Position numbers and translations under genes: made by a program
The notes under the pieces: model-generated
What the model was told of the DNA's origin: nothing
The model's input: only the letters and a program-made list of their open reading frames with translations
Databases searched by the model: none
From: Alphaproteobacteria bacterium
GTDB taxonomy: Bacteria; Pseudomonadota; Alphaproteobacteria; UBA828
Length of the DNA: 64,000 nt
Reading direction: 5' to 3'
Assembly (NCBI GenBank): GCA_965221125.1
Contig: CBDCRW010000006.1
Coordinates: 288,001 to 352,000, forward strand
In this document: piece by piece, positions 29,424-45,727 of the stretch
Position numbering within the stretch: position 1 is the stretch's first letter
How the letters are laid out: each line of letters opens with the position of its first letter

Positions 29424-30452
29424 GTGACGGATCCGCAGGAGAGCGGGGCGCCGGAGGCAGGCGCACGGGGCGTCGTGAACTGGAAGCCCGTGCTCGCCTT
29501 TCTCGGGCGCTACGGCTTCATGATGGCCCTGCTGCTGCCAGCGGTCATCTTGCTCGCCACCAACGAGACCTTCCGCAACCCGCTCAACCTCTCGAACATC
29601 CTGGCCCAGTCCTCGATGGTGGGCGTGGCCGCCGTCGGCATGACGGTGGTCATGATCCTGGGCGGCTTCGACCTCTCCATCGGCGCGATCGCCGCCGTGA
29701 CCGGGCTGGTCGCGGTGCTCGTGTTCGGCACCGGCGATCCCCTGTTCCTGACGCTGGGCTGCTTCGCCTGCGTCGGCGCCGGCGCGCTGCTCGGCGCCTT
29801 CAACGGCACGCTCATCAGCCGCATCGGCATCAACCCGCTGATCGCGACGCTCGCCATGGCGAGCCTCGTGCGCGGGCTCGTGCTGATATCGAGCGAAGGC
29901 ACGATCCATCGCGCCGAGGGCGATGCGATGTGGATCACCACGCTGGCGCTCGGCCGCGTCGGCGGCTTCCCCATCGCGGGGTTCTTCTTCATCGGCGCGG
30001 TCGTGATGGGCTCGATCCTCCTGCGCTACGCGAAGTTCGGGCGCTGGGTCTACGCCATCGGCGGCAACGAGGAGGCAGCCCGGCTCTCGGGCGTGCCGGT
30101 GAGCCGCGTCGTCATCATGTGCTATGCGCTGATGGGCGGCCTCGCCGGGGTCTCCGGGCTGCTGTTCACCGCGCGCACCGGCACCGCGCTCACCACCACG
30201 GGGATCGGGCTCGAGATCGACGCGATCACGGCCACCGTCATCGGCGGCACGCGGCTCGGCGGCGGCCACGGCGCCATTCTCGGCACGGTCGTGGGTGTCA
30301 TCCTGCTGGGAGTCATTCGCAACGGGCTCAACCTGAACGGAGTCTCGCCCTTCTGGCAGCCCTTCATCATCGGCTGCATCCTGCTGATCACGGTCTCGAT
30401 CAGCGTGTGGATGAACCGCACCGAGAACCGCTCCCGCGCCGGCGGGTTCTAG
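29424..30452 (+). CDS. Sugar-type (RbsC-like) ABC permease
   Basis: GMTVVMILGGFDLSIG, IATLAM, YAIGGNEEAARLSG, VIGGTRLGGG. Confidence 0.92.
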   Translation: MTDPQESGAPEAGARGVVNWKPVLAFLGRYGFMMALLLPAVILLATNETFRNPLNLSNILAQSSMVGVAAVGMTVVMILGGFDLSIGAIAAVTGLVAVLVFGTGDPLFLTLGCFACVGAGALLGAFNGTLISRIGINPLIATLAMASLVRGLVLISSEGTIHRAEGDAMWITTLALGRVGGFPIAGFFFIGAVVMGSILLRYAKFGRWVYAIGGNEEAARLSGVPVSRVVIMCYALMGGLAGVSGLLFTARTGTALTTTGIGLEIDAITATVIGGTRLGGGHGAILGTVVGVILLGVIRNGLNLNGVSPFWQPFIIGCILLITVSISVWMNRTENRSRAGGF

Positions 30453-30487
30453 GAGACGCACACGATGCACTTTTTCCGGGGCGCGCC

Positions 30488-32566
30488 ATGACCTACAGGG
30501 TCGGCATCGACATCGGCGGCACCTTCACCGACATCACGGTCGCCGACGAAGAGGACGGCGCCATCGAGGTCTTCAAGGCGCTGAGCGACCGGGAGGACCC
30601 GCTGCAGGGCATCCTGGGCGGGATCGCGCTGGCGTGCGAGGAGCTGGGCTGCTCCGAAGCAGCCTTCATCTCCCAGTGCAGCCGCATCGTCCACGGCACG
30701 ACCATCGGCACCAACGCCATCATCCAGCGCAACGGCCCTGTGGCCGGCCTGCTCGCGACCAGGGGATTTCGCGACGTGCTGGAGTTCATGGACGGGACCA
30801 AGCCGGAGCCCTTCAACATCCGCATGGCGCGGCCGAAGCCACTGATCCCCCGGCACCGGCGCCTCGGCATCGGCGGGCGCATCGACTATCGCGGCGAGGA
30901 GGTCGATCCGCTCGACGAGAGCGACGTGCGGGCGGCGGCGGCGCGCTTCCGCGAACAGGGCGTGAACGCGGTGGCGGTCGCCTTCCTCTGGTCGCAGGTC
31001 AATCCCGCGCACGAGCAGCGGACCCGCGCGATCCTGGCGGACGAGATGCCGGGCATTCCCGTCGTGATCAGCTCCGACATCCTGCCGCAGCTCCGCGAAT
31101 GGGACCGCACCTCGGCGACCGTGCTGAGCGCCTACACGCTGCCCCCCATCGCGGGCTACCTGGAGCGCCTGCGCGCCTGGCTGGCCGACCACGGCTTCGC
31201 CGCCGAGCCTCTCATAATCCAGTGCAACGGGGGCTGCGCGCCGATCGCCCGGATCCTGCACTACCCGGCGCGGAGCATCGGCTCCGGCCCGGCGGCGGCA
31301 CCGGCGGCGGCGGTGCAGGTGGCGAGCGAGTTTTTCGCCCGCAGCGAGATCAACGTCGTCAGCGCCGACATGGGGGGCACGAGCTTCGATGTGGGGCTCA
31401 TCCGGGGCGGGCTGCCGACGCTCACGCGCAACCTCAGGATCGCCGGAATGCCCTTGGGCTCGCTCGCGACGGACATCATCTCGATCGGCGCGGGCGGCGG
31501 CAGCATCGCCTCCATCGACGCCGGCGGCGCGCTCGCCGTGGGCCCGCAGAGCGCAGGCGCCGATCCGGGGCCGGCCTGCTACGGCCTGGGCGGAACGAGG
31601 CCGACCGTGACCGACGCCTTCGTGGCCCTCGGCTACGTCAATCCCGACGCCTTCCTCGGCGGCCGCCTCAAGCTCGACCGGGCGAAGGCGCTGGCCGCGA
31701 TCGACGAAGAGGTCGCGCAGCCGCTTGGCCTGGGGATCGTGGATGCGGCGGCCGGCATCTTCCGCCTCGCCAACTTCAAGATGGTGAAGGCCATGGCGGC
31801 GGTCTCCATCGAGCGTGGCGTCGACCCCCGCAGCACCATCCTCATCGCGGGCGGCGGCGCCGGCGGCGTGGTGGTGGGCAGCCTCGCGGACGAGTTCGGG
31901 ATCGACCGCGCCATCATCCCCCGCGTCGCCGGCGGCTACAGCGCCTTCGGCATGACCGTGGTCGACGTGACCTTCGACTACACCAGGACGTTCACGACCG
32001 ATTCCGACACGGTGGACGTGGACGCGGTCAACCGGCTCTTCGCCGAGATGGAGGAGAGCGCGCTGCGCGATCTTGCGGCAAGCGCGATCCCGACGGAGGA
32101 CGTCCACTTCCAGTGGTTCTACGACGCCGCCTACTGGGGGCAGGCGCACGAGCTGATCGTGCCGCTCGCCAAGGGCCGCTTCGATGACGTGGCCGACCTG
32201 CGGCGCGCCTTCGACGACGAGCACGAGCGCATCTACACCTTCAAGATGGAGGGCGACCGGGTCAACTTCCTGCACTGGCGCGTGAACGCCGTGGTGGGCA
32301 GCAGCATGCCGACGCCGCGGCGGGACGTGAGCGAGCCGGACGACCCTTCCGCCGCGCTCCGGGGCCGCCGCACGGCCTATTTCGGCGGCGAGGACGGTGC
32401 GGCGGAGGTGCCGGTCTACGACGGCATGCGGCTCGAGCCGGGCCACGCGGTGCGCGGGCCGGCGGTGATCGAGGAGCCGACGACGAGCGTGACCGTCTTC
32501 CCCGGCCACGCCGTGCGGGTCAGCCTCTCGGGCTACGACTATCGGGTGAACGGCGATGCCCTATAA
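30488..32566 (+). CDS. Hydantoinase A / oxoprolinase alpha-type subunit
   Basis: ATG 30488; GIDIGGTFTD, HGTTIGTNA, SGPA, DMGGTSFD, GAGGGSIA, GPQSAGADPGPACY. Confidence 0.92.
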   Translation: MTYRVGIDIGGTFTDITVADEEDGAIEVFKALSDREDPLQGILGGIALACEELGCSEAAFISQCSRIVHGTTIGTNAIIQRNGPVAGLLATRGFRDVLEFMDGTKPEPFNIRMARPKPLIPRHRRLGIGGRIDYRGEEVDPLDESDVRAAAARFREQGVNAVAVAFLWSQVNPAHEQRTRAILADEMPGIPVVISSDILPQLREWDRTSATVLSAYTLPPIAGYLERLRAWLADHGFAAEPLIIQCNGGCAPIARILHYPARSIGSGPAAAPAAAVQVASEFFARSEINVVSADMGGTSFDVGLIRGGLPTLTRNLRIAGMPLGSLATDIISIGAGGGSIASIDAGGALAVGPQSAGADPGPACYGLGGTRPTVTDAFVALGYVNPDAFLGGRLKLDRAKALAAIDEEVAQPLGLGIVDAAAGIFRLANFKMVKAMAAVSIERGVDPRSTILIAGGGAGGVVVGSLADEFGIDRAIIPRVAGGYSAFGMTVVDVTFDYTRTFTTDSDTVDVDAVNRLFAEMEESALRDLAASAIPTEDVHFQWFYDAAYWGQAHELIVPLAKGRFDDVADLRRAFDDEHERIYTFKMEGDRVNFLHWRVNAVVGSSMPTPRRDVSEPDDPSAALRGRRTAYFGGEDGAAEVPVYDGMRLEPGHAVRGPAVIEEPTTSVTVFPGHAVRVSLSGYDYRVNGDAL

Positions 32567-34511
32567 CGACGTGACGGACGGCGAGGCGATGCAGGCGGCG
32601 GGCGCGGGCCGGCCGCGCACGCGGAGCGAGGGTCTTTCCGAAGGGATCGACCCGACCATGTTCTCCGTGCTGCTGCACGCGATTGGCCAGGCCTCCGACG
32701 AGATGACGCGGGTCCTGCAGCGGGGCGCGCGCAGCACGATCATCTCGATCGCGCGCGACCACTCGGCCTCGATCTACACGGCGCAGGCCCAGATGCTCTA
32801 CCAGAACGACGCGCTGCCGATCCACACCATCGGCGGCGCGCTCAACATCGACGCGACCATCGAGGAGTTCGGCGACGACATCAACGACGGCGATGTCTTC
32901 ATGATCAACGACCCCTACATGGGGACGACGCACAACTCCGACCTCACGGTGATCATGCCGGTGTTCCACGAGGGCCGGCACCTGTTCTGGACCTCGATCC
33001 GCGCGCACCAGAACAACACGGGCGAGGCCTCCTTCGGCCACGCCTCCACCAGCGTCTGGCAGGACGGCATCCAGATCCCGCCCGTGCGCATCTTCGAGCG
33101 CGGCAAGGAGGTGCGCAGCATCATCCGCTTCTACCTGCGGAACGTCCGGCTGCCGGAGTGGCTGGAGGCGGACCTGCGCGCCATGGTGGGCTCGGTACGC
33201 ACGGGCGCAGCGCGGCTGAGCGAGATGACCGCCACGCATGGCGAGGATACGGTGCTCGCCACGGTCGCCGAGATGATCGAGTACTCGGACCGGCGCACGG
33301 CGGCCGAGATCCGCGCGCTGCCGGACGGCGTCTACAAGGGCGAATCCTGGATCGACAGCGACGGGCAAGGCACGCACGACATTCGCATCGCGTGCACCGT
33401 GACCATCGACGACGACATGGTGCATGTCGATTATTCGGAGAGCGACCCGCAGGTGGGCGGGCATTGCAACTCCTCGCTCGCCTCGCTGCAGGCCAACGGC
33501 AGCATTCCCGTGCTCACCACCATCGACCCCACCATCCCGCGCAACGAGGGCTGCATGCGCCACATCCGCGTCAGCGCGCGAGAGGGCACGGTCGCGCTCG
33601 GCAAGTGGCCGTCGAGCACCTGGTGGTCAACCACCAATCCCGGCGACGAGCTGATCGAAGCCGCGTGGAAGGCGCTGGCGCAGGCCGCACCCGATCGCGT
33701 TCCGGCGGGCTGGGGGCGGATCCAGCAGCGGCTCTCCATGGGCGACGACTACCGCACCGACCCGCCGACGCCCTTCGCGGCCTCGATCTTCGTCGCGGGC
33801 TCGGGCGGGGGCGGCTGCAAGGGCCACGACGGCTGGCCGCTGACGCAATGCGTCTGCGCGCTGGGCGGGCTTCAAAACGAATCAGTGGAGATGGTCGAGC
33901 TGCTCCAGCCCCTCTTCATCGAGAGCAACGAGTTCCTCGTCGATTCCGCCGGCGCCGGCGAGTGGATCGGCGGCCACGGCTGCGAGACGGTGGTGATGCC
34001 CTACCACGGGCTGCTCTACATGAAGTTCGAGTACGAGGGGACGCTGAACCCGCCCTTCGGCCTGTTCGGCGGGCTGCCGGGCAACGGTGGCTGCAAGTAC
34101 AAGGAGACGCCGGACGGCAAGCGCTACTTCTACCAGGCGCACCCCGACCCCGACGCCTTCCGCGAGGGCGAGCGCTACGTCTGCATAAGCTCCGGCGGGG
34201 GTGGCTACGGCAGCGCGCTGGACCGGCCGGCGGAGGCGGTGCGCGAGCTGGTGCGGGACGAGCTGGTCTCGTCGGAAATGGCGCGCGAGCACTTCGGCGT
34301 GGTGCTCGATGCGGAGACGCTGGCGGTCGACGAGGCGGAGACCGAGGCGCTGCGCGGGCGCATGCGGGAGACGGCGGATCGCTCCATGTCGCTACCGACC
34401 GGCCCCGGCCAGGGGCTGTTCTGGAAGACCCGCTTCCGCGAGGGCGACGAGCTGGTGGTCGAGGAGACGCCCGTCGCGCTCAAGCTCGGCCTCTCGCCCG
34501 AGGCCCGCTGA
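32556..34511 (+). CDS. Hydantoinase B-type subunit (atypical), paralog 1
   Basis: IDPTMFSVL, ARSTII, NDPYMGTTHNSD, DGIQIPP, DSAGAG, GGGGYG. Confidence 0.88.
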   Translation: MPYNDVTDGEAMQAAGAGRPRTRSEGLSEGIDPTMFSVLLHAIGQASDEMTRVLQRGARSTIISIARDHSASIYTAQAQMLYQNDALPIHTIGGALNIDATIEEFGDDINDGDVFMINDPYMGTTHNSDLTVIMPVFHEGRHLFWTSIRAHQNNTGEASFGHASTSVWQDGIQIPPVRIFERGKEVRSIIRFYLRNVRLPEWLEADLRAMVGSVRTGAARLSEMTATHGEDTVLATVAEMIEYSDRRTAAEIRALPDGVYKGESWIDSDGQGTHDIRIACTVTIDDDMVHVDYSESDPQVGGHCNSSLASLQANGSIPVLTTIDPTIPRNEGCMRHIRVSAREGTVALGKWPSSTWWSTTNPGDELIEAAWKALAQAAPDRVPAGWGRIQQRLSMGDDYRTDPPTPFAASIFVAGSGGGGCKGHDGWPLTQCVCALGGLQNESVEMVELLQPLFIESNEFLVDSAGAGEWIGGHGCETVVMPYHGLLYMKFEYEGTLNPPFGLFGGLPGNGGCKYKETPDGKRYFYQAHPDPDAFREGERYVCISSGGGGYGSALDRPAEAVRELVRDELVSSEMAREHFGVVLDAETLAVDEAETEALRGRMRETADRSMSLPTGPGQGLFWKTRFREGDELVVEETPVALKLGLSPEAR

Positions 34512-34555
34512 GCGGCAGTGTGAGAGCCGACGACGAGAGACGGAAAGGTGAGTGA

Positions 34556-35263
34556 ATGAGCGAGACCCCCACCGCAGCGGAGATCGAGGCGCTGCGCGAC
34601 ATCGATACGCCGACCATCTGCAACCTGCTGGAGATGGTCGTGCCGGAGCGCCGCGGCTACGGCTACACGGTGCAGCATCTGCACTGCCTCTACCCGGACA
34701 TGAAGCCCATCGTCGGCATCGCCAAGACGGCGACGATGCGCGCCAAGAACCCCGCGCGCTGGAGCCCGGCGGAGTACATGGACATCCGCGCGGGCTACTT
34801 CGACTATCTGGCCGAGGGCGAGGCGCCGAAGATCAGCGTGGTGCAGGACGTCGACGAGCGGCCGGGCTACGGCGCCTTCTGGGGCGAGGTCTTCAGCGCC
34901 GTGCACAAGGCGCTCGGCTGCCGCGGCGTGGTGACCAACGGCAGCGTCCGCGACATCGACATGCTGGCGCCCGAGTTCCAGGTGCTGGCTGGGCTGATCG
35001 CGCCGTCGCACGCCTTCGTCCACGTCGCCCATTGGGGCTGCGAGGTCAACGTACACGGCATGGTGGTGCAGGACGGCGACCTGATACACGCCGACCGGCA
35101 CGGCGCGGTCGTGGTCCCGCTCGGGGCGGTGCGCGGCGTGCTCGGCAAGCTCGACCTCATGGTGCGCAAGGAGGCGGTCATCCTGGAAGCGGCGCGGCGC
35201 CCCGATGCCACGGTGGACATGATCAAGGACGCCTGGCAGCGCTCCACGGAGATCCGGGAGTAG
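34556..35263 (+). CDS. RraA / HMG-aldolase family protein
   Basis: DTPTICN, WGEV, GVVTNGSVRD, GDLIHADRHGAVVVP. Confidence 0.87.
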   Translation: MSETPTAAEIEALRDIDTPTICNLLEMVVPERRGYGYTVQHLHCLYPDMKPIVGIAKTATMRAKNPARWSPAEYMDIRAGYFDYLAEGEAPKISVVQDVDERPGYGAFWGEVFSAVHKALGCRGVVTNGSVRDIDMLAPEFQVLAGLIAPSHAFVHVAHWGCEVNVHGMVVQDGDLIHADRHGAVVVPLGAVRGVLGKLDLMVRKEAVILEAARRPDATVDMIKDAWQRSTEIRE

Positions 35264-35314
35264 TATCGGCAGGCCGGTCCGAGACGGCGATAGAGGAGGC
35301 CGAGAGTGGCGGAC

Positions 35315-36091
35315 ATGGCGGACACACCGCTCGTCGAGATGAGGAACGTCTTCAAGGCGTTCGGCGGCGTGCATGCGGTGGAGGACGTGACGGTCCAAGT
35401 GGGCGCGGGCGAGGTGCTCGGTATCGTCGGCCACAACGGCGCCGGCAAGTCGACCCTCATCAAGATCCTCTCCGGCGCGCACACCATGGACAGCGGCCAG
35501 ATCCTGATGCGGGGCGAGCCCGTCTCCATCGACAATCCGCGTGTCGCGCGCTCGCTCGGGATCGAGACGCTCTACCAGAACCTCGCGCTGGCCGACAATC
35601 TCGATGCCGCCGCCAACCTGTTCCTCGGGCGCGAGATCACGACGCCCTACGGCAAGCTCGACAACAGGACGATGGCCGAGGCGACGCGCGAGGTGATCGC
35701 CCGCATCAACCCGGAGTTCGCGAACCTCGGCACGCCGGTGCTCAATCTCTCGGGCGGGCAGCGCCAGACCATCGCCATCGCCCGCGCGGTCTACTTCAAC
35801 GCCAGGGTGCTCATCATGGACGAGCCGACGGCGGCGCTCGGCTTGCGCGAATCCGCGGCGTTCAAGGAGCTGGTACTCAGGCTCAAGCAGGAGGGCATCG
35901 GCATGTTCATGATCAGCCACGACCTGCACGACGTCTTCGACATCTCGGACCGCATCTTCGTCATGTCCGGCGGCCGCGAGGTGGGCACGCGGCGCACCGA
36001 CGAGGTGACCAAGGACCAGGTGCTCTCCATGATCATCCTCGGCAAGCAGCCGGGGGAGGAATCGGCCGAGGACCTGGCCAGGCTGCACTAA
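35315..36091 (+). CDS. Sugar-type ABC transporter ATP-binding protein (single domain)
   Basis: [33 protein letters not shown]. Start could be GTG 35306. Confidence 0.92.
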
Positions 36092-36109
36092 ACGGAGACC
36101 CGCACGGCC

Positions 36110-38029
36110 ATGTCGGCACGCGACCGCACGCTCGCGCTCGAATCCCAGGCCATGAGCCCGGGCGTGGACCCGGTCACGTTCTCCGTACTGCTCCACGCCA
36201 TCGGCGAGGCGTCGAGCGAGATGACGACGGTGCTGCAGCACGGCGCGCGCAGCACCATCATCTCGATCGCCCGCGACCACTCGGCCTCGATCTACACGGC
36301 AGGCGCCGAGATGCTCTACCAGAACGACGCGCTGCCGATACACACCATCGGCGGCGGGCTCAACATCGAGGCGATCAGGGAGGAGTTCGAGGACGACATC
36401 AACGACGGCGATATCTTCATGATCAACGACCCCTACATGGGGACCACCCACAACTCCGATCTCACCGTCGTCATGCCCGTGTTCGTGGACGGCGCGCACC
36501 TGTTCTGGACGTCGATCCGCGCGCACCAAAACAACACCGGCGAGGCCTCCTTCGGGCATGCCTCCACCAACGTCTGGCAGGACGGCATCCAAATCCCGCC
36601 CGTGCGCATCTTCGAGCGCGACAAGGAAATCCGCAGCACGATCCGCTTCTACCTGCGCAACGTCCGCCTTCCCGACTGGCTGGAGGCCGATCTCAGGGCC
36701 ATGGTGGGCGCGGTTCGCGCCGGCGCGGCGCGCCTGCAGGAGATGACGGAGACTCACGGCGTCGATGTCGTCGTGCCGACGCTGGCCGAGATGATCGCCT
36801 ACGCCGAGCGCCGCACGGCCGCCGAGATCCGGGCGCTGCCCGACGGCGTCTATGAGGGCGAAGGGTGGATCGACAGCGACGGTCAGGGCACGCACAACAT
36901 CCGCATCGCGTGCACCGTCACCATCGACGACGACACCATCCACGTGGATTTCTCGGGCAGCGACCCGCAGGCCGGCGGCCACTGCAACGCGACCGTGGCC
37001 ACGATGGAGGCCTGCGGCAGCATCCCGGTGCTTACCATCATCGATCCCACCATCCCGCGCAACGAGGGGTGCACGCGGCGCATCCGGGTGACGGCGCCCG
37101 AGGGCTCGGTGGCGAACGCGCGCTGGCCCGCGAGCACGTGGTGGGGCACCGTCAACCCCGGCGACATCCTGATCGAGGCGGCCTGGAAGGCGCTGGCGCA
37201 GGCCGCGCCGGAACGTGTGCCGGCGGGCTGGGGGCGCTGCCAGCAGCGGCTCTCCATGGGCGACGACAACCGGGTGAGCCCGTCCGTGCCGTTCGCCGCA
37301 TCCATCTTCGTCGCGGCCTCCGGCGGCGGCGCCTGCAACGGCGCCGACGGCTGGCCGCTCACGCAATGCGTCTGCTGCCTGGGCGGGATGCAGACGGAAT
37401 CGGTGGAGATGGTGGAGCTGCTGCAGCCGCTCTTCGTCGAGTACAACGAGTTCCTGGCCGACAGCGCCGGCGCCGGCACCTGGATCGGCGGCCACGGCAT
37501 CGAGACCAGCGTCCGGCCGGTCGACGGCGTCCTCTACATGAAGTTCGAGTACGAGGGCACGTTCAACCCGCCATTCGGCCTGTTCGGCGGCCTGCCCGGC
37601 AACGGGGGCTGCAAGTACAAGGAGCGCGAAGACGGCACGCGGCGCTTCTACATGGCGCACCCGGACCCGGACGTGATCTACGAGGGCGAGCGCTACGTCA
37701 CCGTCACCACCGGCGGCGGGGGTTACGGCGATCCGCTTGAGCGGCCTGCGGACTCGGTGCGGGTGCTGGTGCGGGACGAGCTGCTGACGGTAGAAGCAGC
37801 GCGCGCGAGGTTCGGCGTCGCGATCGATCCGGCGACGCTGGAGGTGGACGAGGGCGAGACCGCGGCGCTGCGTCGCCAGCGCGGGGACGGGGCGGCGCCG
37901 CCGCTCTGGCTGCCGCAGGAGGCCGGCGAGGCCGAATACTGGAGGGAGCGCTACCGCGATGGCGACGAGCTGGTGTGGGAGACCATGCCGGCCGCGCTCA
38001 GGCTCGGCCTCTCAGCCGAGGCGAGGTAG
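36110..38029 (+). CDS. Hydantoinase B-type subunit (atypical), paralog 2
   Basis: Collinear with 32556-34511, with long identical stretches (e.g. FMINDPYMGTTHNSDLTV, WTSIRAHQNNTGEASFGHAST). Confidence 0.88.
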   Translation: MSARDRTLALESQAMSPGVDPVTFSVLLHAIGEASSEMTTVLQHGARSTIISIARDHSASIYTAGAEMLYQNDALPIHTIGGGLNIEAIREEFEDDINDGDIFMINDPYMGTTHNSDLTVVMPVFVDGAHLFWTSIRAHQNNTGEASFGHASTNVWQDGIQIPPVRIFERDKEIRSTIRFYLRNVRLPDWLEADLRAMVGAVRAGAARLQEMTETHGVDVVVPTLAEMIAYAERRTAAEIRALPDGVYEGEGWIDSDGQGTHNIRIACTVTIDDDTIHVDFSGSDPQAGGHCNATVATMEACGSIPVLTIIDPTIPRNEGCTRRIRVTAPEGSVANARWPASTWWGTVNPGDILIEAAWKALAQAAPERVPAGWGRCQQRLSMGDDNRVSPSVPFAASIFVAASGGGACNGADGWPLTQCVCCLGGMQTESVEMVELLQPLFVEYNEFLADSAGAGTWIGGHGIETSVRPVDGVLYMKFEYEGTFNPPFGLFGGLPGNGGCKYKEREDGTRRFYMAHPDPDVIYEGERYVTVTTGGGGYGDPLERPADSVRVLVRDELLTVEAARARFGVAIDPATLEVDEGETAALRRQRGDGAAPPLWLPQEAGEAEYWRERYRDGDELVWETMPAALRLGLSAEAR

Positions 38030-38174
38030 AGCGTTTCCGTTTGAAACGGAAACGCTCTACGAATTTTTCGCTCACGGCAGCCGGCCGTTGGCCGGCGCCT
38101 CCGCGAGGGCGCCGCATACGCGGCGGGCCGCTGTCGCGGCCTATCGCGCGTCCGTCAAAGTCGGACGCGCGATA
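38027..38174 (+). repeat. Dispersed ~148-bp multi-hairpin repeat, copy 2
   Basis: TAGAGCGTTTCCGT..ACGGAAACGCTCTA, core TCGCTCACGGCAG, terminal TATCGCGCGTCCG..CGGACGCGCGATA; lies between convergent genes. Confidence 0.9.
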
Positions 38175-39420
38175 AGAGCCCGAAGCGGTCGGCGGCGAAG
38201 GGCGCGAGGTTGAGGGCGGGCTCCCGTCCGGCCACGAGATCGGCAATCACCTCGGCGGTCTTCGATGCGCCGATGACACCCTGGTGCCCGTGGCCGAAGG
38301 CGAAGAGCACCGCCGGGTGGCGTGGCGCCCGGCCGAGGATGGGCAGGCTGTCCGGCGTGCACGGCCGCTCGCCCATCCACGTCGTGCGCTCCTCGACATT
38401 GAGAGCGGGCAGCGTGGCCTTGGCGTGGCGGCAGAGCGCGTCGGCGCGCTTGCCGTTGGGCGGCGCGCCATCGCCTGCGAACTCGACGGTGCCGCCGATC
38501 CTGATCCCCATGGCCATGGGGACGATGGTCGCGGAAACGGCCGTGGGCAGGACGACCCTGCCCAGCGAGACGCCGGGGTTGGTGAAGGTCGCGTGGTAGC
38601 CCCGCTGGGAGACGAGAGGGACGCGGTAGCCCAGCCCGGCAACCAGCGGCCGCGACCAGACGCCGGCGGCCACGACGACGGTGTCGTAGTCATGAGTCTC
38701 GCCGCCGAAGTGGATGGCGGCGCTGTCCCTCCCCTGCGCCGAGATGCGCTCGACACGCGCGCGCTGAAAAGTTCCTCCCTGGCGTCCGAAATGCTCGGCA
38801 AGCCCGGTGACGAGGCGGTGGGGGTCGAGGGTGTGGGCCGCCGCCGGCACGAGGAAGCCGCTGGAAAATCCGGGCGCCAACGCGGGCTCCAGGTCGCGAA
38901 GGCCGGCCGCATCGAGCGTCTCCACCGCGTAGCCCGCCGCCCGCTGGAGCGAGACGGCGAGGCTTTCGCCGGCACTCTCCCGCCCCGCGGGGTCGACGTA
39001 GAGCATGCCCTTCTTCTCGACCATTGCGTCGAGCCCGGCTTCCCGCAGGAGCGGCATGAGCAGGTCGAGGGTAGAGCCGTTGAGCGCGGCGAGCGACGCC
39101 GAGATCGCCCGCACCCGGTCTTCCCGGCCCGCGCGCACGAAGGCGACGAGCCAGGGCAGGAGGCGCGTCAGCTCGCGCCAGTCGAGATAGAGCGGGCCGG
39201 TCTCGTCGAGCAGCCAGCGCGGGACCTTCCTCGCAAGGCCCGGCATCGCCACGGGCATCACGGCAGCGGGCGATATCACGCCCGAGTTGCCGTAGGAGGC
39301 GCCCGCGCCCGGCGCATCGCGGTCCAGGAGCGTGACCGCGTGGCCCTCGCGTCTCAGGAAACAGGCAGTAACGGTTCCGACGATGCCGGCACCGATGACC
39401 GCGACGGATCGTGCTGCCAT
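38155..39420 (-). CDS. D-amino acid dehydrogenase (DadA/DAO family FAD oxidoreductase)
   Basis: VIGAGIVG, ASYGNSG, VVAAGVWS, RGYH, WMGERPCTPDSLPILG, FGHGHQG. Confidence 0.9.
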   Translation of the reverse strand: MAARSVAVIGAGIVGTVTACFLRREGHAVTLLDRDAPGAGASYGNSGVISPAAVMPVAMPGLARKVPRWLLDETGPLYLDWRELTRLLPWLVAFVRAGREDRVRAISASLAALNGSTLDLLMPLLREAGLDAMVEKKGMLYVDPAGRESAGESLAVSLQRAAGYAVETLDAAGLRDLEPALAPGFSSGFLVPAAAHTLDPHRLVTGLAEHFGRQGGTFQRARVERISAQGRDSAAIHFGGETHDYDTVVVAAGVWSRPLVAGLGYRVPLVSQRGYHATFTNPGVSLGRVVLPTAVSATIVPMAMGIRIGGTVEFAGDGAPPNGKRADALCRHAKATLPALNVEERTTWMGERPCTPDSLPILGRAPRHPAVLFAFGHGHQGVIGASKTAEVIADLVAGREPALNLAPFAADRFGLLSRVRL

Positions 39421-39537
39421 GAATCACCTTGTCGGGAATGACCTTGACGGCGGGGGACACACGTTACACTAGCCAGCACGCACGGTCCGGCACGGCGTGA
39501 CGTCGGACGGTTGATGATCGCTTCCGGAGGCTTGCGC

Positions 39538-41232
39538 GTGGGAGAGGCATTCGATTACGTGATCGTGGGCGGCGGCTCGGCGGGCGCCGTGCTGGCCCAT
39601 CGCCTCTCGGCCGATCCCGCGACGCGCGTGGCCCTGCTGGAAGCGGGCCCGGACACGCCGCCGGAGACGGTGCCGGACATCATCCTCGACAGCTATCCGG
39701 GGCGCGCCTACTTCGATCCGCGCTTTCACTGGCAGGACCTGCGCGTCTACAACCGCTCGCCCGAGATCGACCCCTCGCAGAAGCCGAGCCGCTTCGAGCA
39801 GGCCCGCGTCATGGGCGGCGGCTCCTCCATCAACGGCCAGTTCGCCGTGCGCGGGATGCAGGGCGACTACGACGAGTGGGAGGAGATGGGGCTCCCCGGC
39901 TGGTCCCACGCGGGCCTTCTGCCCTACTTCAACAGGCTGGAGCGGGACGTCGATTTCGCCGGCGACGGCCACGGCAGCGCCGGGCGCATCCCGGTGCGCC
40001 GGCTCTTCCCGGAGGAATGGGGCGGGTTCAGCCGCGCGGCGCTCGCCGCGATGGAGGACAACGGCCTGCCCCTCTGCGGCGACGTGAATGGCGACGACGC
40101 CGACGGCTGCTATCCCGTGCCGCTCTCGAACCAGTACGGGCGGCGCGTCTCCACGGCGATCGGCTACCTCGACGCCGCGACCCGGCGGCGGCGCAATCTC
40201 GCCATTCACGCGGAGACCACGGTGACGCGCATCGTCGTCGACGGCGGTCGGGCGCGCGGGGTCGAGGCGGTGAGCCGGGGGAAGACCCTCCGCTTCGACG
40301 CGCGGGAGACCATCGTCTCCGCCGGCGCGCTTCACTCCCCTGCCCTGCTGCTCCGCGCCGGGGTCGGCCCGGCGGAGCACCTGCGCGCGCTCGGGATCGA
40401 GGTGGCGGCCGACCTGCCGGGCGTCGGCGGCAACCTGCTGGAGCACGCGAGCGTCAGCGTCGCGGCGCACCTGAAGCCCCGCGCCCGCGTGCCGGCCGGG
40501 CAGCGCCGCCACATCTATTTCGGCGCGCGCTACTCCTCCGGGCTGCAGGGCTGCCCGCCGGGGGACATGCTCTTCATGCCGACCAATTCCGCCGGCTGGC
40601 ATCCGCTGGGCCAAGCGATGGGCACCATGCTCCTGGCGGTCAACAAATCGTACTCGCAGGGCACCGTGCGCCTCGCCACGCCCTCGCCCTTCGACGAGCC
40701 CCGCGTCGACCTCAACATGCTCTCCGACGAGCGCGATCTCGTGCGCCTTGTCGACGGCTTCCGGCGCCTCTACAGGGTCATGGAGTCGCCGGCCGTGAAG
40801 GATCAGATAACGCTGTGGTTCCTCGCCGGCTATTCGGACGCCGTCCGCCGCCTGATGGTGCCCTCGGCCGGGACCTGGCTGAAGACGGCGACGGCACGCG
40901 CGCTGCTCGACCTGGGCGGCCCCGGTCGCGTGCTGCTGCGCCGCAAGCTCACCGGCGGGCGCGACGTGCACCGCATGGTCAAGGACGAGAGCGCGCTCGC
41001 GGACTGGATCAAGGCATCGGTCTGGCCGGGCTGGCACGTGTGCGGGACCTGCCGCATGGGCCCGGACGGCGACCCGCTCGCCGTGCTCGACGGCGAGTGC
41101 CGCGTGCGCGGCGTGGCGGGGCTCCGCGTGGTCGATGCCTCGGTGATGCCGACGATCCCGCGCGCCAACACCAACCTCACGACCATCGCGATCGCCGAGA
41201 AGATCGCCGACGGGATGCGAACGCGGGCGTGA
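39538..41232 (+). CDS. GMC oxidoreductase, HmfH (HMF/furfural oxidoreductase)-like
   Basis: GTG 39538 after GGAGG; FDYVIVGGGSAG, DTPP..VP..ILDSYP, EQARVMGGGSSIN, RVSTAIGYLDA.TRRR.NL, AGWHPLG, WHVCGTCRMG, ANTNLTTI. Resemblance to Cupriavidus HmfH is from recall, not alignment. Confidence 0.85.
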   Translation: MGEAFDYVIVGGGSAGAVLAHRLSADPATRVALLEAGPDTPPETVPDIILDSYPGRAYFDPRFHWQDLRVYNRSPEIDPSQKPSRFEQARVMGGGSSINGQFAVRGMQGDYDEWEEMGLPGWSHAGLLPYFNRLERDVDFAGDGHGSAGRIPVRRLFPEEWGGFSRAALAAMEDNGLPLCGDVNGDDADGCYPVPLSNQYGRRVSTAIGYLDAATRRRRNLAIHAETTVTRIVVDGGRARGVEAVSRGKTLRFDARETIVSAGALHSPALLLRAGVGPAEHLRALGIEVAADLPGVGGNLLEHASVSVAAHLKPRARVPAGQRRHIYFGARYSSGLQGCPPGDMLFMPTNSAGWHPLGQAMGTMLLAVNKSYSQGTVRLATPSPFDEPRVDLNMLSDERDLVRLVDGFRRLYRVMESPAVKDQITLWFLAGYSDAVRRLMVPSAGTWLKTATARALLDLGGPGRVLLRRKLTGGRDVHRMVKDESALADWIKASVWPGWHVCGTCRMGPDGDPLAVLDGECRVRGVAGLRVVDASVMPTIPRANTNLTTIAIAEKIADGMRTRA

Positions 41233-41281
41233 TGCGGCACACTGTCGCCCGATCTGGAATTGCGAACCGGGGAGAGTGCTG

Positions 41282-42226
41282 ATGGCACGGGTCACGGAAG
41301 CGGCGCCTGACGGCGTCGTCAGGCTGGAGAACCGCTTTGCGGACGGCGCCGCCTTCATCGACGGGGCCTTCGTGCCGATCGCCGAGGCGCGGATACCGAT
41401 CCTCGACTGGGGCTTCACGCGCTCGGACGTCACCTACGACGTGGTGCACGTCTGGGGCGGCAAGTTCTTCCGGCTCGACCATCATCTCGACCGCTTCGAG
41501 AAGAGTCTCGCCAGCGTCCGCATGAGCATTCCCCACGAGCGCGACGAGGTCGTCGCGATCCTGATGCGGCTGATGCGCCTCAGCCAGCTGCGCGAGGCCT
41601 ACGTCGAAGTGCTGTGCACCCGCGGCATGCCGCCCAAGGGCACCCGCGACCCCCGTGCCTGCGAGAACCGCTTCATCGCCTTTGTCATCCCCTTCGTCTG
41701 GATCGCGGACGAGGAGATGCGCGCCCGCGGCATCAACCTGCACCTCAGCTCCTACCTGCGGATTCCGCCGGGCTCGGTCGACCCCACCGCCAAGAACTTC
41801 CACTGGGGCGACATGATCCGCGCGCTGTTCCAGAGCTACGAGCGGGGCTGCGACATGCCGGTGGTCGTCGACCTCGACGGCAACATCGCCGAGGGGCCGG
41901 GCTTCAACGTCTTCGCCGTCAAGGGCGGCACCGCGACGACGCCGGGCGGCACCTGCCTCGAAGGCATCACGCGGCGGACCGCGCTCGACCTCTTGGGCGA
42001 ACTCAACGTGAAAGGGGAGGTCGGCATCGTCTCGCCGGACGACCTGCGCGGCGCCGACGAGGTCTTCGTCACCAGCACGGCGGGCGGCATCCTGCCGGTG
42101 ACGAAGATCGACCACGAGCCGGTGGGGGACGGCGCCGTCGGCCCGGTGACCGAGAGGCTGCGCGCCCTCTACTGGGAGCGGCACGAGGACGACAGCGAGG
42201 CGACGCCGATCGACTACGAGGGCTGA
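41282..42226 (+). CDS. PLP fold-type IV aminotransferase, (R)-selective amine transaminase-like
   Basis: EARIPILDWGFTRSDVTYDVVHVW, FFRLDHHLDRF, AYVEV, DPTAKNFHWGD, EGPGFN, LEGITR, STAGG. Confidence 0.85.
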   Translation: MARVTEAAPDGVVRLENRFADGAAFIDGAFVPIAEARIPILDWGFTRSDVTYDVVHVWGGKFFRLDHHLDRFEKSLASVRMSIPHERDEVVAILMRLMRLSQLREAYVEVLCTRGMPPKGTRDPRACENRFIAFVIPFVWIADEEMRARGINLHLSSYLRIPPGSVDPTAKNFHWGDMIRALFQSYERGCDMPVVVDLDGNIAEGPGFNVFAVKGGTATTPGGTCLEGITRRTALDLLGELNVKGEVGIVSPDDLRGADEVFVTSTAGGILPVTKIDHEPVGDGAVGPVTERLRALYWERHEDDSEATPIDYEG

Positions 42227-42285
42227 GCCGCGGCGCACGGCATCAAGGTCTTCATTCGCCACTGGCCGCGGGCGCGGCGCGCGCC

Positions 42286-43953
42286 ATGATGATCGGCGGC
42301 ATACCGGGGCCCAAGCGCATCGGAGTCGGGCTCGAGGCCAGGGCCGGGCTGCTCCGGGGTGCCGCAACGGTGGGCCGCATCGTCGGCACCACCCTCGGCC
42401 CCGGCGGGCGCGCGGTGCTGATCGAGCGCCGCCATGCCCAGCCCTGGGTCTCCACCGACGGCTACACCATCGCGCGGCACATCGACCTCGAGGACCGCTT
42501 CGAGGACATGGGCGGCCGCCTGATCCGCCACGTCGGCTCGAAGGTGAGCGACGAGGTGGGCGACGGCTCCACCACCGCGATGGTGCTGGCGGCTGCGCTC
42601 ATGGAGGAAGGCCACCGCGCGACCGCCGCCGGCGCCGACCCCATGAGCGTCATGCGGGGGATGGAGCGCGGGCTCGCCGCAGCCACGGAAGCGCTGGACG
42701 CGCAGTCCCGCCCCCTGCCGGCGGAGGGCGGCCTGGAGCGCGTGGCCCGGCTCGCGGCGGGCGGCGACGAGGAGATCGGGCGCCACCTCGCCCATGCCAT
42801 CCGCCGGGTCGGCCCCGACGGGGTGGTGACCATCGAGGAGGCGCAGGGCGTCGAGACCGAGCTCTCGGTGCACGAGGGCATGAGCTTCGACACGGGCTAC
42901 GTCTCGCCCGCCTTCGTCACCGATACGGACGACATGACGGCCACCCTGGAAGACGCCTACGTGCTGATGCACGAGAAGACGATCTCCAGCGTGGACGCGA
43001 TCGAGCCCGCGCTCCGCGCCTTCGCCAAGTCGTCGCACACGCTGCTGATCGTGGCGGAGGACGTAGTGGGCGATGCGCTGGCGACGCTGATCGTCAACAA
43101 GCAGCAGGGTGGGCTCCGCGTCGCCGCGGTCAAGGCGCCGGGCTTCGGGCGCTGGCGCAAGCTCATGCTGGAGGACATCGCGGTCATGACCGGCGGGGAG
43201 ATCGTCACCGACGAGCTCGGCAACAAGCTGGAGAACCTGAAGCCCGCGATGATGGGCGCGGCGAAGCGGGTGCACGTGGCCCGCGACCGCACCGCCATCG
43301 TGGACGGCGCGGGCGATGCCGAGGAGATCGCGCAGCGCTGCAACATGCTGCGGCGCGAGGCGGAGGCCGAGAAATACCTGAGCTTCGACCGCGAGAAGCT
43401 GCAGGAGCGCCTCGCCCGCCTCGCCGCCGCCATCGCGCACTTGCGGCTTGGCGGCGCGACCGAGACGGAGCTCCGCGCGCGGAAGGAACGCGCGACGGAC
43501 GCCTTGAACGCTGCCCGCGCAGCGGCGGCGGAGGGCGTGGTGCCCGGCGGCGGCGTGGCGCTCGTGCAGGCCTCCCGCGCGCTTCGCGACGTCGATGCCC
43601 GCAGCGACGACGAGGCCATGGGCGTCTCTGCGCTGGCGGCGGCACTCAAGGCGCCGATGCGGCGGATCGTGGAGAACGCCGGCGGCGAGGGCACCTACGC
43701 CGTCGCCCGCGCGCTCGCCCAGGACAATCCGCGCTGGGGCTTCGACGCGGCCGCACGGCACTTCCGCGACCTGCCGCGCGCCGGCATCGCCGATCCGACG
43801 CGGGTGGTGCGCACCGCGCTGCGGACGGCCGTCCCGGCCGCAGCCCGCGCCATCGCTGCCGAAGCCGTGATCGCCGGCAGGCCGCAGCCCGCCGAGCCCG
43901 AGACCCAGGCGCTCCCCGAATCGGACCTGCCGGGCGGGCAGAAAGAGGGATAG
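42286..43953 (+). CDS. Divergent GroEL (Cpn60) paralog
   Basis: TLGPGGR, GDGSTTA, GMSFDTGY, KAPGFG, DREKLQERLARL, EGVVPGGG, GIADP; no GGM tail and no groES nearby. Confidence 0.9.
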   Translation: MMIGGIPGPKRIGVGLEARAGLLRGAATVGRIVGTTLGPGGRAVLIERRHAQPWVSTDGYTIARHIDLEDRFEDMGGRLIRHVGSKVSDEVGDGSTTAMVLAAALMEEGHRATAAGADPMSVMRGMERGLAAATEALDAQSRPLPAEGGLERVARLAAGGDEEIGRHLAHAIRRVGPDGVVTIEEAQGVETELSVHEGMSFDTGYVSPAFVTDTDDMTATLEDAYVLMHEKTISSVDAIEPALRAFAKSSHTLLIVAEDVVGDALATLIVNKQQGGLRVAAVKAPGFGRWRKLMLEDIAVMTGGEIVTDELGNKLENLKPAMMGAAKRVHVARDRTAIVDGAGDAEEIAQRCNMLRREAEAEKYLSFDREKLQERLARLAAAIAHLRLGGATETELRARKERATDALNAARAAAAEGVVPGGGVALVQASRALRDVDARSDDEAMGVSALAAALKAPMRRIVENAGGEGTYAVARALAQDNPRWGFDAAARHFRDLPRAGIADPTRVVRTALRTAVPAAARAIAAEAVIAGRPQPAEPETQALPESDLPGGQKEG

Positions 43954-43989
43954 AGCGCCGCTGACTTTGACGGACGCGCGATAGGCCGC
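43951..43989 (-). repeat. Inverted fragment of the dispersed repeat
   Basis: GACTTTGACGGACGCGCGATAGGCCGC is the exact reverse complement of part of copy 2; preceded by TAGAGCG at the GroEL stop. Confidence 0.75.
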
Positions 43990-43994
43990 CCTGC

Positions 43995-44141
43995 CAGAAC
44001 GTTTCCGTATTGCACGGAAACGCTCTGGCCGTTTGTCGCTCACGGCAGCTGGCCTGCGGCCAGCGCCTCCGCGAGGGCGCCGCATTCGCGGCGGGCCGCT
44101 ATCGCGGCCTAGAACGCGTCCGCAAAAGCGGACGCGTTCTA
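43995..44141 (+). repeat. Dispersed ~148-bp multi-hairpin repeat, copy 3
   Basis: Same core as copies 1 and 2; the last hairpin ends in CTA, the TAG stop of the convergent mlaC-like gene. Confidence 0.9.
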
Positions 44142-44807
44142 TTCCGCCGTGGCGCCGATGGGCGCCTCGATGCGCGCGCGGATGTCGCCGAGCAGGCCGT
44201 TGAAGCCCTTGCGGTTGATGACCGAGGCGAACTCGGCCCGGTGGGTGAGCAACATGCTGATGCCCTCGACGTAGAGGTCGACGACCCGGTGGCCGCCGTC
44301 CCTCGGGCGGACGCGGAAATCGAGCTCGACGGGGTCGGCGCCGGATGGCCGGGACACCTGCGCGCGCACGATGGTGTCGCCGCTCTCGTCGGCGATGGCG
44401 GCGTGCACCGTGAACACCTCGCCGCCGTAGGAGTATGAATCGAACCGGCTCGCGTAAACGCGCGCGAGAAAGTCGAGCAGGACGGCCGTGAATTCCGCGC
44501 GCTGGTCGTCGCTCGCCGTCCGCCAGTGCTTGCCCAGCACGAAGCGGGCAACGATCGGGATGTCGAAGCCCCGGCCCAACACGTCACGGAACGCGACCTC
44601 GCGCTCGGCCAGAGTGCTGTTCGCCTTATCGCCCAGGATGGCCATGACCTCGTCCCCGACACCCTGGACGAAGGCGACCGCCGCGTCGTCCGACGCCGCC
44701 GTCCGCTGCCCTGCGGCCGCGATCATGAGGGCGGCAATCAGGGCGCCGGCCAGCAGGGCGCGCCGGGACAGGCGGCTGAAGCGCTTCGGATTCGATCTTC
44801 GTGACAC
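44139..44807 (-). CDS. mlaC: MlaC/Ttg2D-family phospholipid-binding protein
   Basis: FDIPIVARFVLGKHWRTAS..QR.EF, VVDLYVEGISML.T.R.EF.SVI; start approximate. Confidence 0.82.
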   Translation of the reverse strand: MSRRSNPKRFSRLSRRALLAGALIAALMIAAAGQRTAASDDAAVAFVQGVGDEVMAILGDKANSTLAEREVAFRDVLGRGFDIPIVARFVLGKHWRTASDDQRAEFTAVLLDFLARVYASRFDSYSYGGEVFTVHAAIADESGDTIVRAQVSRPSGADPVELDFRVRPRDGGHRVVDLYVEGISMLLTHRAEFASVINRKGFNGLLGDIRARIEAPIGATAE

Positions 44808-45013
44808 TGCGACCGCCCGATTCTCGTCGACCGATAAAATGTATTGCCTTTTGACGTATTCACAACAGCGAGCGGCAAGGGACGCGCAATTAGACTGCAC
44901 CGGCGCATGGCCGCCGTGGCGGAGTCGCTTTCCCTTGCCCGACTGGAGAATCGGGATAATGTTGCGGCGCCGTGACACCCGACTCGATCTTCCCGCCGCG
45001 TAGGCGCGCCTGC

Positions 45014-45727
45014 GTGCGGGTCCTCCTCTTCTCTGTCGCAACCCTGCTTGCGGCAGCGCTCGCCTCGCCGGCGGCGGCCGACCTGCTCGCGGATGGCGCC
45101 GCCTCCTACGAGGCCGGCGACTACGAAGGAGCCGCGAAGGCCTGGCGTCCGCTCGCCGAGGGGGGCGACGCGATGGCCCAGTTCAACCTGGGCCTCCTGC
45201 ACGAGACCGGGCGCGGCGTGGCCGAGGATGCGGCCGCGGCGGCGGCCTGGTACGAGCGTGCGGCCCTGCAGGGCGTGACCCAGGCGCAGTTCAATCTGGC
45301 GTTGCTGCACCAGACCGGGCGCGGCGTGGAGCAGGACGGAGAAGAGGCGCTCTACTGGCTCGAGGTCGCGGCCCGGCATGGCGAGGGCGCCGAGGGCGAG
45401 CAGGCAGCCGACGCGGCGGCCCGGCTGGCCGAGATTCTGCCGCCAGAACAGGTGGACGAGGCCCGCACCCGCGCCGCCGATTTCGCGCCGCGCGCGCAGG
45501 AAGCGCCGACCCTGGCCGGGGCGACGACGTTGATCCTCTCGGACAGCCAGGTCGCGGAGCTGCAGCGCCGGCTCGCGGCCCACGGCTACGATCCGGGGCC
45601 TGCGGACGGCGTGCCCGGAGAGCAGACGCGGCGCGCCGTGCGCCGCTACCTCGCCGACCGGGGCGTCGAATGGTCGGCGGGCGAGAATTTGTCGCAGCGC
45701 CTGCTGGACCTCGTCCCCGCGCCCTAA
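45014..45727 (+). CDS. Secreted Sel1-repeat protein with C-terminal peptidoglycan-binding domain
   Basis: Two AQFNL..L...GRGV repeats; LQRRLAAHGYDPGPADGVPGEQTRRAV; start approximate. Confidence 0.85.
   Translation: MRVLLFSVATLLAAALASPAAADLLADGAASYEAGDYEGAAKAWRPLAEGGDAMAQFNLGLLHETGRGVAEDAAAAAAWYERAALQGVTQAQFNLALLHQTGRGVEQDGEEALYWLEVAARHGEGAEGEQAADAAARLAEILPPEQVDEARTRAADFAPRAQEAPTLAGATTLILSDSQVAELQRRLAAHGYDPGPADGVPGEQTRRAVRRYLADRGVEWSAGENLSQRLLDLVPAP

Follow-up and report, generated by a model that had tools for sequence, protein, structure and literature searches.

What do four adjacent genes tell us about the natural role of an enzyme when their predicted products can be fitted into one catabolic cycle? 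This question is raised by positions 38155-43953 of a 64,000-nucleotide stretch of DNA from an alphaproteobacterium (NCBI GenBank assembly GCA_965221125.1, contig CBDCRW010000006.1, positions 288,001 to 352,000; hereafter the window), where genes for a DadA-like oxidoreductase, a GMC oxidase, a fold-type-IV transaminase and a GroEL paralog lie side by side. (R)-selective amine transaminases are widely used to make chiral amines, their natural roles are obscure, and soluble expression fails for several of the bacterial members. A preliminary description of the locus proposed a native four-gene module in which an amine is turned into an acid, D-alanine is recycled, and the transaminase has a chaperonin of its own. 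Gene order in related genomes indicates that this arrangement very probably spans the seam between two independently inherited gene units. The attractive 'native pathway' is set aside here, as its oxidase and DadA-like genes are parts of a separate mobile block of 13 kb, and what is left is a narrower and directly testable lead: a chaperonin gene that stays with one transaminase through repeated rearrangement of both flanks.

Four genes at the locus

The window has a base composition of about 70% GC. The four genes are the following.

38155-39420, minus strand: DadA-like FAD-dependent oxidoreductase of the DAO family (Pfam DAO, 8.6e-61)
39511/39538-41232, plus strand: GMC flavoenzyme resembling hydroxymethylfurfural (HMF) oxidase (Pfam GMC_oxred_N, 2.4e-40; GMC_oxred_C, 8.2e-37)
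41282-42226, plus strand: fold-type-IV transaminase, predicted to be of the (R)-selective amine transaminase type (Pfam Aminotran_4, 1.6e-45, for the frame 41276-42226)
42286-43953, plus strand: GroEL paralog with the conserved start ATG 42286 (Pfam Cpn60_TCP1, 1.1e-63)

All four stand where the preliminary description had put them, and its gaps of 117, 49 and 59 bp are recovered with the starts GTG 39538, ATG 41282 and ATG 42286; TTG 39511 and ATG 39514 are possible alternative starts of the GMC gene. By third-position GC (0.88–0.92), the frames of the DadA-like, GMC and transaminase genes are coding. This filter did not pass the GroEL frame, whose coding status is taken from the Pfam and NCBIfam matches together with its translation and conserved start.

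The seam between two units

When one genome per species was scanned, 268 stretches encoding relatives of the transaminase were returned, from which the best 80 loci were kept. Orthologs of the GMC and DadA-like genes flank the transaminase gene in only one of these 80, that of the nearest relative (L001), and two more loci have distant homologs several kb away from it (a 33% identical GMC gene in L030 and a 38% identical DadA-like gene in L071). Among the 18 genomes that hold the transaminase gene together with the GroEL paralog, again a single one has both orthologs beside the pair. The preliminary description had taken conservation of the linkage as a point on which its module would stand or fall, and because the survey of co-occurrence found the linkage to be unconserved, the four-gene pathway is unsupported.

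The DadA-like and GMC genes have a different set of conserved neighbors. GMC orthologs (88–91% identity) occur in 7 of the 20 other genomes of the genus. In all six genomes from which the region was fetched (G004, G005, G009, G013, G014 and G007; L111-L116) the block is found apart from the transaminase, with the GMC gene divergent from the DadA-like ortholog at the end of a HyuAB-RraA-ABC ATPase-HyuB2 array; HyuA and HyuB copy 1 are visible in five of the six, the contig of G007 (L116) beginning upstream of RraA. No match to the transaminase or the GroEL paralog was found in any of the six fetched stretches around the block. The transaminase-GroEL pair lies 2 Mb away in G004 and on another contig in G005, G009, G013 and G007, and it was not found in G014. 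Moreover, the divergent DadA-like/GMC pair is kept in all eight genomes that hold the block, L001 and L111-L116 among them.

The edges of the block can be placed by comparison with a metagenome contig (L120) that encodes a transaminase and a GroEL, both 96% identical to those of the window, and that is without the block. L120 is colinear with window positions 25313-28148 (its own positions 1-2836, at 95.5% identity) and 41204-43981, and the 13,055 bp that separate these two stretches in the window correspond to 82 bp in L120. The breakpoints delimit two units and a junction.

28149-41203: block of 13,055 bp (Unit 1), in the order ABC importer, HyuA/HyuB, RraA-like, HyuB2, DadA-like, GMC (blastn breakpoints against L120)
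41204-43953: two-gene cassette (Unit 2), with an (R)-amine-transaminase-type enzyme followed by the GroEL paralog
41204-41221: recombination junction, a short microhomology of the GMC 3′ end and ancestral intergenic DNA (homology overlap)

The transaminase gene of L120 heads a unit that diverges from a thiolase gene, and of the intergenic region of ∼230 bp, 78 bp are left in the window (41204-41281). Homology on the transaminase side begins at 41204 in the comparison with L120 and at 41210-41231 in comparisons with other genomes, homology with the blocks of G004, G005 and G014 starts at 28216-28218 and ends at 41217-41221, and the last codons and the stop codon of the GMC gene lie in DNA that is common to L120 upstream of its transaminase. 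At the right edge, the stop codon of the GroEL gene marks the limit (43941-43963) of the homology that the window has with all other transaminase-GroEL loci. Contigs from two further public runs, which belong to two studies (X5 record 11, 39740-41400; X6 record 20, 41132-41652), bridge the GMC/transaminase junction, which is thus not an assembly artefact; the many short joints obtained when contigs from four runs were mapped are noise from relatives at 85% likeness. As read from these alignments, the juxtaposition of GMC and transaminase genes is real but confined to a strain cluster, and the closed amine-to-acid cycle is a recent, strain-level juxtaposition of two units, not a conserved module.

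In the present strain and those nearest to it, Unit 1 would have come to lie immediately ahead of Unit 2 by recombination at the short microhomology, and transcription may therefore run here from the GMC gene through the transaminase and GroEL genes. No terminator-like site was found between these three genes in a terminator scan. A sigma-70 promoter scan of 37900-44300 found no promoter, a result that is uninformative in DNA of 70% GC.

A GroEL gene that stays with a transaminase gene

Orthologs of the GroEL paralog (64–93% identity) were found in 19 of 60 related genomes, namely in 17 of the 20 of the genus and in G025 and G028, and all other GroEL matches in the 60 genomes are at most 48% identical, so that the result is bimodal. 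With the sole exception of G025, the 19 genomes have the transaminase gene immediately ahead of the paralog and in the same orientation (18 of 19). The transaminase itself has orthologs (at least 79% identity) in 20 of the 60, among them every one of the 19 holders of the paralog. Hence, if a client-linked chaperonin is recognized by a gene that lies beside that of its client and is conserved together with it, adjacency holds in 18 of 19 cases and co-presence in 19 of 19. Neither gene was found in G014 or G015, each of which is 95% complete.

The surroundings of the pair vary on both sides. On the left, a TauD-like gene stands in 9 of 18 flanks, yajC in L085, the GMC gene in L082 and a thiolase gene in L120, and neither TauD nor yajC is seen in seven left flanks. 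On the right, the neighbors are PhyH, an FAD-linked oxidase or MlaC, the last of these being the neighbor in the window, where it is on the minus strand. The spacer between the transaminase and GroEL genes is variable in both sequence and length over the 12 loci aligned, and no conserved element was found in it. Median pairwise ratios of nonsynonymous to synonymous substitution (dN/dS, by the NG86 method) are 0.215 for the paralog (19 sequences, 171 pairs) and 0.155 for the transaminase (18 sequences, 153 pairs, with the split L086 copy left out), and both genes are therefore maintained by selection. A metagenome scan with the paralog gave five close relatives (85–96% identity) and eight matches of the housekeeping type, and no distant members by which the linkage could be tested independently.

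The TauD-like gene encodes a TauD/TfdA-family dioxygenase and is the commonest upstream neighbor of the transaminase gene in the genus (L002, L003, L006, L007, L084, L088-L095, L121 and L122). Its product scores 148 bits, against a cut-off of 313 for taurine dioxygenase, and the genome of the window was found to have no ortholog exceeding 45% identity.

Features of the GroEL paralog

Of the three GroEL genes in the genome, two stand behind groES and a CIRCE-like site (controlling inverted repeat of chaperone expression), and the third behind the transaminase gene. The product of the third is 45–46% identical to each of the two housekeeping copies, barely clears the NCBIfam model TIGR02348 (585.4 against a cut-off of 582.1), and scores 606.2 against 352 with PRK12849. 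Compared with the housekeeping groESL system, which is of the HrcA/CIRCE kind, it has the same fold and length, and it is colinear with the Cpn60 of Paracoccus (1iok, 1.2e-150), but it carries a conserved N-terminal extension of six residues and a GFG[RQ]WRK motif, and it evolves faster. The longer form of this motif, PGFG[RQ]WRK, is present in 20 of 20 paralog sequences, whereas the two housekeeping copies have PGFGDRRK or PAFGDRRK. A Gly-Met tail is found in none of the 20 sequences of the paralog clade, one of which is cut by a contig end, and both housekeeping copies end in GGM repeats.

The genetic setting of the paralog differs as well. CIRCE-like sites lie ahead of both groES genes, a perfect one at C6:40317-40343 and one with two mismatches at C7:826246-826272, and none was found near the cassette with up to four mismatches allowed. 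There is no groES gene near the paralog, and the only two Cpn10 genes of the genome adjoin the other two groEL genes. The ATP-site motifs of GroEL, those by which the chaperonin binds and uses ATP, are kept in the paralog: LGPGGR, GDGSTT, PGGGVAL and ADP align with the housekeeping motifs, and GDGSTT is present in 20 of 20 sequences. With domain limits taken from E. coli and applied to the numbering of a housekeeping copy, identity to the housekeeping proteins is highest in the apical region (51–55%) and lowest in the equatorial and intermediate regions (35–50%), with 41–44% for the equatorial domain.

Is the paralog a client-linked chaperonin?

The model that we favor is one in which the paralog would be a client-linked chaperonin, with folding or assembly of the transaminase as its main job. 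It would use a housekeeping GroES or none, and it would be expressed together with its client instead of with the heat-shock regulon. The idea of a 'dedicated chaperonin' in the preliminary description is backed in so far as the paralog is tightly linked to the transaminase gene. By gene order and by analogy with known chaperonin genes, we judge the chances that the transaminase is indeed its client to be evenly balanced. The account as a whole, with two units, a client-linked chaperonin and recent recombination, seems moderately probable to us. The fuller version, in which a co-evolved private chaperonin would be independent of heat shock and perhaps without a dedicated GroES, is put forward tentatively, with somewhat less than even confidence; this would be the first natural transaminase-chaperonin cassette.

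Precedents exist for such a helper. In the available part of one report, chaperonin genes adjoin clusters for di-iron monooxygenases, mimG being found with mimABCD and bmoG with bmoXYBZDC (PMC11825192). As there, at least in the portion of that report at hand, the gene for the GroEL homolog of the window lies within or beside the operon of a single enzyme and not with groES, which suggests a client-specific helper. The presumed client differs from those of mimG and bmoG, since it would be a small homodimeric enzyme dependent on pyridoxal phosphate (PLP) instead of a multi-subunit metalloenzyme; outside one genus and two sister genera, the 60 genomes have no member of the paralog family of the window. 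The model also fits a result given in the accessible text of another study, where E. coli produced no soluble protein from four of eight newly chosen (R)-selective amine transaminases ((R)-ATAs), two of the four being of Gram-negative origin (PMC8048526). A literature search, within the partial texts that it covered, returned no natural GroEL-transaminase operon, no chaperonin gene beside an (R)-ATA gene and no native pathway for bacterial (R)-ATAs. As far as these sources extend, the new element is a cassette of an (R)-ATA-type gene with a GroEL paralog that has neither groES nor CIRCE, and client-linked chaperonins are as a kind already known.

Several observations weigh against the favored model. 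The paralog stands beside the transaminase gene in only 9 of the best 80 loci, all of them among the 10 loci with at least 80% transaminase identity (L007 is the exception), and thus transaminases of this type generally fold without a private chaperonin; in L025, a 44% identical GroEL gene lies ∼9 kb upstream of the transaminase gene on the opposite strand. Because the holders of the paralog amount to one genus and two sister genera, few independent events are represented and the linkage could partly be inertia. G019 keeps an intact transaminase gene (92% identical, median dN/dS 0.18) without the paralog, which is therefore not obligatory, and at most a conditional need is indicated. In G025 the two genes are carried on different contigs. 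Finally, the transaminase gene of G013 (L086) reads as frameshifted at ∼885-895, with two bases fewer than in L084, and the GroEL gene behind it is intact; this transaminase gene may be a pseudogene or an assembly error. A complex predicted from alignments of the apical region of the paralog (residues 190-385) and of the transaminase scored 0.06, against a mark of 0.32, which counts neither for nor against the model.

Some of these points would also be expected if the paralog were a general or condition-specific chaperonin of the lineage, and its position the historical outcome of a single ancestral duplication that landed there. Every occurrence is in one clade, the transaminase is alone in G019 and unlinked to the paralog in G025, and duplicated groEL genes are common, being present in nearly 30% of bacterial genomes according to the part available of a survey (PMC3578752). 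The apical domain, which binds clients, is moreover the one best conserved relative to the housekeeping copies. However, the pair has remained intact while both of its flanks were rearranged, with breakpoints at its very ends, the paralog never occurs without a transaminase ortholog (19 of 19) and both are missing in G014 and G015, and the paralog has no CIRCE, no groES and no Gly-Met tail. We regard a general chaperonin as unlikely on this balance. If the paralog instead served other expanded large catabolic enzymes, such as the lactamase-like HyuA/HyuB, the transaminase would be a mere neighbor. The genome does have 31 HyuA-like and more than 35 HyuB-like matches, and a HyuA gene lies within 10 kb of the transaminase gene in 15 of the 28 closest loci. 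Yet these nearby copies fall in five different orthogroups among the 31 paralogs of the genome, one HyuA gene per ∼150 kb leads to an expectation of chance proximity in about one locus in eight, and no HyuA gene is adjacent to the GroEL gene in a conserved way, which makes HyuA/HyuB clients quite improbable. A conserved linkage of HyuAB with the transaminase was rejected on the same ground, since the HyuA genes near 15 of the 28 loci come from five orthogroups. The HyuA tree behind this statement has 41 sequences (31 from the genome and 10 from the loci), matches shorter than 550 residues having been dropped (e.g. L006, L023 and L024), and is one without support values.

The closed cycle of the preliminary description, in which the transaminase would make an aldehyde and D-alanine from a (hetero)arylmethylamine and pyruvate, the oxidase would carry the aldehyde to the acid, the DadA-like enzyme would return D-alanine to pyruvate, and GroEL would fold the transaminase, is consistent with the family assignments and with the co-directional GMC, transaminase and GroEL genes of the window, their gaps of 49 and 59 bp, and the terminator scan. 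The nearest relative (L001/L082) has the arrangement as well, as do contigs from two further studies; the juxtaposition therefore persists in a strain cluster, where it could have been co-opted. The cycle is disfavored by the single occurrence of the arrangement among the 80 homologous loci and among the 18 pair-holding genomes, and genomes with 90–97% identical transaminases have a TauD-like gene, yajC or a thiolase gene upstream instead. In six of six fetched genomes it is the HyuAB block, and not the transaminase, that the GMC and DadA-like genes accompany, the junction is a recombination scar inside the last GMC codons, and the DadA-like protein falls under the cut-offs of DadA models. We consider such a cycle highly improbable.

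If the favored model of a client-linked chaperonin is true, GroEL paralogs of this kind, known for di-iron monooxygenases, extend to a small PLP enzyme. The paralog would then also be a practical co-expression partner, and bacterial (R)-amine transaminases that form no soluble protein in E. coli might be rescued by it. If the client relation is false, the locus is an ordinary (R)-ATA-type gene beside a lineage-specific GroEL duplicate.

The presumed client

Assignment of the transaminase to the (R)-selective amine transaminase type is supported by its closest relatives and motifs, and its activity and stereoselectivity are predictions. In a PDB search the best solved relative was 8zm7 (2.1e-82), followed by 9k35, 6xwb, 6fte, 4ce5 and 3wwh, all of them entered in the PDB as amine or (R)-selective transaminases, and the matches to the branched-chain aminotransferase (BCAT) of E. 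coli (1i1k, 1.6e-26) and to the D-amino acid aminotransferase (DAAT) of Bacillus (3daa, 1.1e-24) were far weaker. No NCBIfam model for BCAT, DAAT or aminodeoxychorismate lyase (ADCL) reaches its cut-off on this protein. Two motifs are given for (R)-ATAs in the available part of the source: [HR]-x(4)-Y-x-[VT]-x-[HSAPT] at positions 31-40, and [YF]-V-[EAQN] at positions 95-97, the latter in place of the YxR of BCAT and the YxQ of DAAT (PMC8048526). The window protein matches the first with RSDVTYDVVH (residues 47-56, counted from ATG 41282) and the second with YVE (residues 107-109), and the peptides quoted in the preliminary description (FTRSDVTYDVVH, YVE and DPTAKNFHWGD) are all present in its translation. 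An RxH carboxylate trap was found nowhere in the protein. The catalytic lysine is Lys171 (from ATG 41282) and is invariant across 34 aligned sequences.

The solved (R)-ATAs, which include enzymes of Shinella (6xwb), Aspergillus terreus (4ce5) and Arthrobacter (3wwh) besides 8zm7, 9k35 and 6fte, are colinear with the window protein over its full length (E values of 2e-82 to 1e-72), and the difference from them is that the predicted (R)-ATA of the window has a chaperonin gene directly downstream. Taken alone, the transaminase gene is an ordinary member of a known family. Only three conservative residue changes (V/L, L/I and V/L) distinguish the 19 transaminases linked to GroEL from 14 unlinked ones, the N-terminal columns in this comparison being an artefact of where the tblastn matches start.

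Four more fold-type-IV transaminase genes of the genome are 36–44% identical to that of the window (C6:436531-438373, C6:688071-688949 and C3:199766-200632). Two of the four are convergent neighbors; all four may be (R)-ATA-like paralogs, and GroEL stands beside none. The genome has a single further DadA-like gene (30% identical), which adjoins another fold-type-IV aminotransferase gene (30%), and these two (C3:15040-18456) may form a separate D-amino-acid pair.

The upstream block

The genes of the 13-kb block that precede the DadA-like and GMC genes, and the two genes of its left flank, are listed here.

25200-26864, minus strand: thiamine-diphosphate enzyme, acetolactate-synthase-like (Pfam TPP_enzyme_N/M/C), in the flank colinear with L120
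26913-28070, minus strand: thiolase-like gene with approximate start (third-position GC frame analysis; Pfam Thiolase_N/Thiolase_C_1)
28221-29279, plus strand: periplasmic solute-binding protein of the sugar type, Peripla_BP_4 (Pfam, 2.4e-43; NCBIfam RbsB-related matches are weak)
29424-30452, plus strand: ATP-binding cassette (ABC) permease, BPD_transp_2 (Pfam, 9.3e-39)
30452-32566, plus strand: HyuA-type subunit, caprolactamase-alpha-like, with approximate start (Pfam Hydant_A_N/Hydantoinase_A/Hydant_A_C; CapA, 624 against 1000 bits)
32556-34511, plus strand: HyuB-type subunit, copy 1 (Pfam Hydantoinase_B, 8e-129; CapB, 311 against 1000 bits)
34556-35263, plus strand: RraA-like or aldolase-family protein (Pfam RraA-like, 2.5e-18)
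35306-36091, plus strand: ABC transporter ATPase (Pfam ABC_tran, 1.3e-28)
36110-38029, plus strand: HyuB-type subunit, copy 2 (Pfam, 9.1e-134; 75–76% identical to copy 1 by tblastn)

Unit 1, with a putatively ATP-dependent HyuA/HyuB enzyme of the caprolactamase-like kind, may thus be proposed to import and ring-open a lactam- or hydantoin-like compound and then to oxidize the products, a catabolic role that we infer from family-level matches, all of them under curated cut-offs. The caprolactamase models CapA and CapB are the best NCBIfam matches for HyuA and both HyuB proteins, yet all three score far below the equivalog cut-offs (copy 2 of HyuB reaches 318 bits with CapB, against 1000). Relative to CapA/CapB and to the hydantoinase/oxoprolinase/acetophenone-carboxylase family, the window set consists of one alpha-type and two beta-type genes. 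It is one of ∼31 paralogous sets in the genome, and the expansion in 4.58 Mb comprises 31 HyuA-like, more than 35 HyuB-like and 11 GMC oxidoreductase matches.

The family calls of the preliminary description held for the transaminase as an (R)-amine type and for the GMC protein, and orthology of the remaining enzyme with DadA did not, its scores being below the curated cut-offs. The best solved relative of the GMC protein is HMF oxidase (6f97/4udp; 1.9e-115, 390 bits), the next match being at 6.5e-73 and 249 bits, and the choline dehydrogenase and MftG models remain below cut-off on it. It is accordingly called HMF-oxidase-like by its nearest solved relative, with a furanic substrate as a putative one; as distinct from genes of the HmfH type, the window gene is not linked to furan-degradation genes and is paired with the DadA-like gene in the HyuAB block. 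The DadA-like protein scores 202.4 against 383 with NF001933 and 146.5 against 494 with NF009074. It belongs to the DAO family, with the DadA subfamily as its best NCBIfam match though under the cut-off, and its best solved relatives are only glycine oxidases (5e-18). The conserved partner of its gene is the GMC gene, not the transaminase gene.

In the other six genomes, a homolog of the D-hydroxy-amino-acid (D-3-hydroxyaspartate) aldolase BhcC is encoded between HyuB and the RraA-like gene (L111:4199-5341, and at the same position in L112-L115), scoring 252 against 690 bits. This gene is absent from the window (34511-34556) and from L001, where HyuB and the RraA-like gene are 44 bp apart.

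Repeats and rearrangements around the units

Palindromic repeats resembling repetitive extragenic palindromic (REP) sequences lie near both units.

38026-38060: perfect palindrome with a 16-bp stem, terminator-like and of the REP-like family, between the convergent HyuB2 and DadA-like genes (terminator scan)
43991-44141: REP-like palindromic repeats just beyond the right-hand edge of the cassette (brief repeat matches with unrelated loci)

Across the 4.58-Mb genome, the 12-nt core that they share occurs 40 times in one typed orientation and 34 times in the other. The depth of metagenome contigs is 201–1476 at 38100-38300 and 264–3027 at 43929-44100. The REP-like palindromes mark block ends and rearrangement points, where depth is 10–100 times that of neighboring genes. 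An intact DDE transposase gene (DDE_Tnp_1_4, 5e-166) is located at 19610-21004, where GC content drops locally to 59%, and lies ∼7 kb upstream of the flank of the 13-kb block. Downstream of the GroEL gene, the MlaC/Sel1 segment (44139-45726) is inverted with respect to L120 (6756-8352), a further rearrangement beside the cassette.

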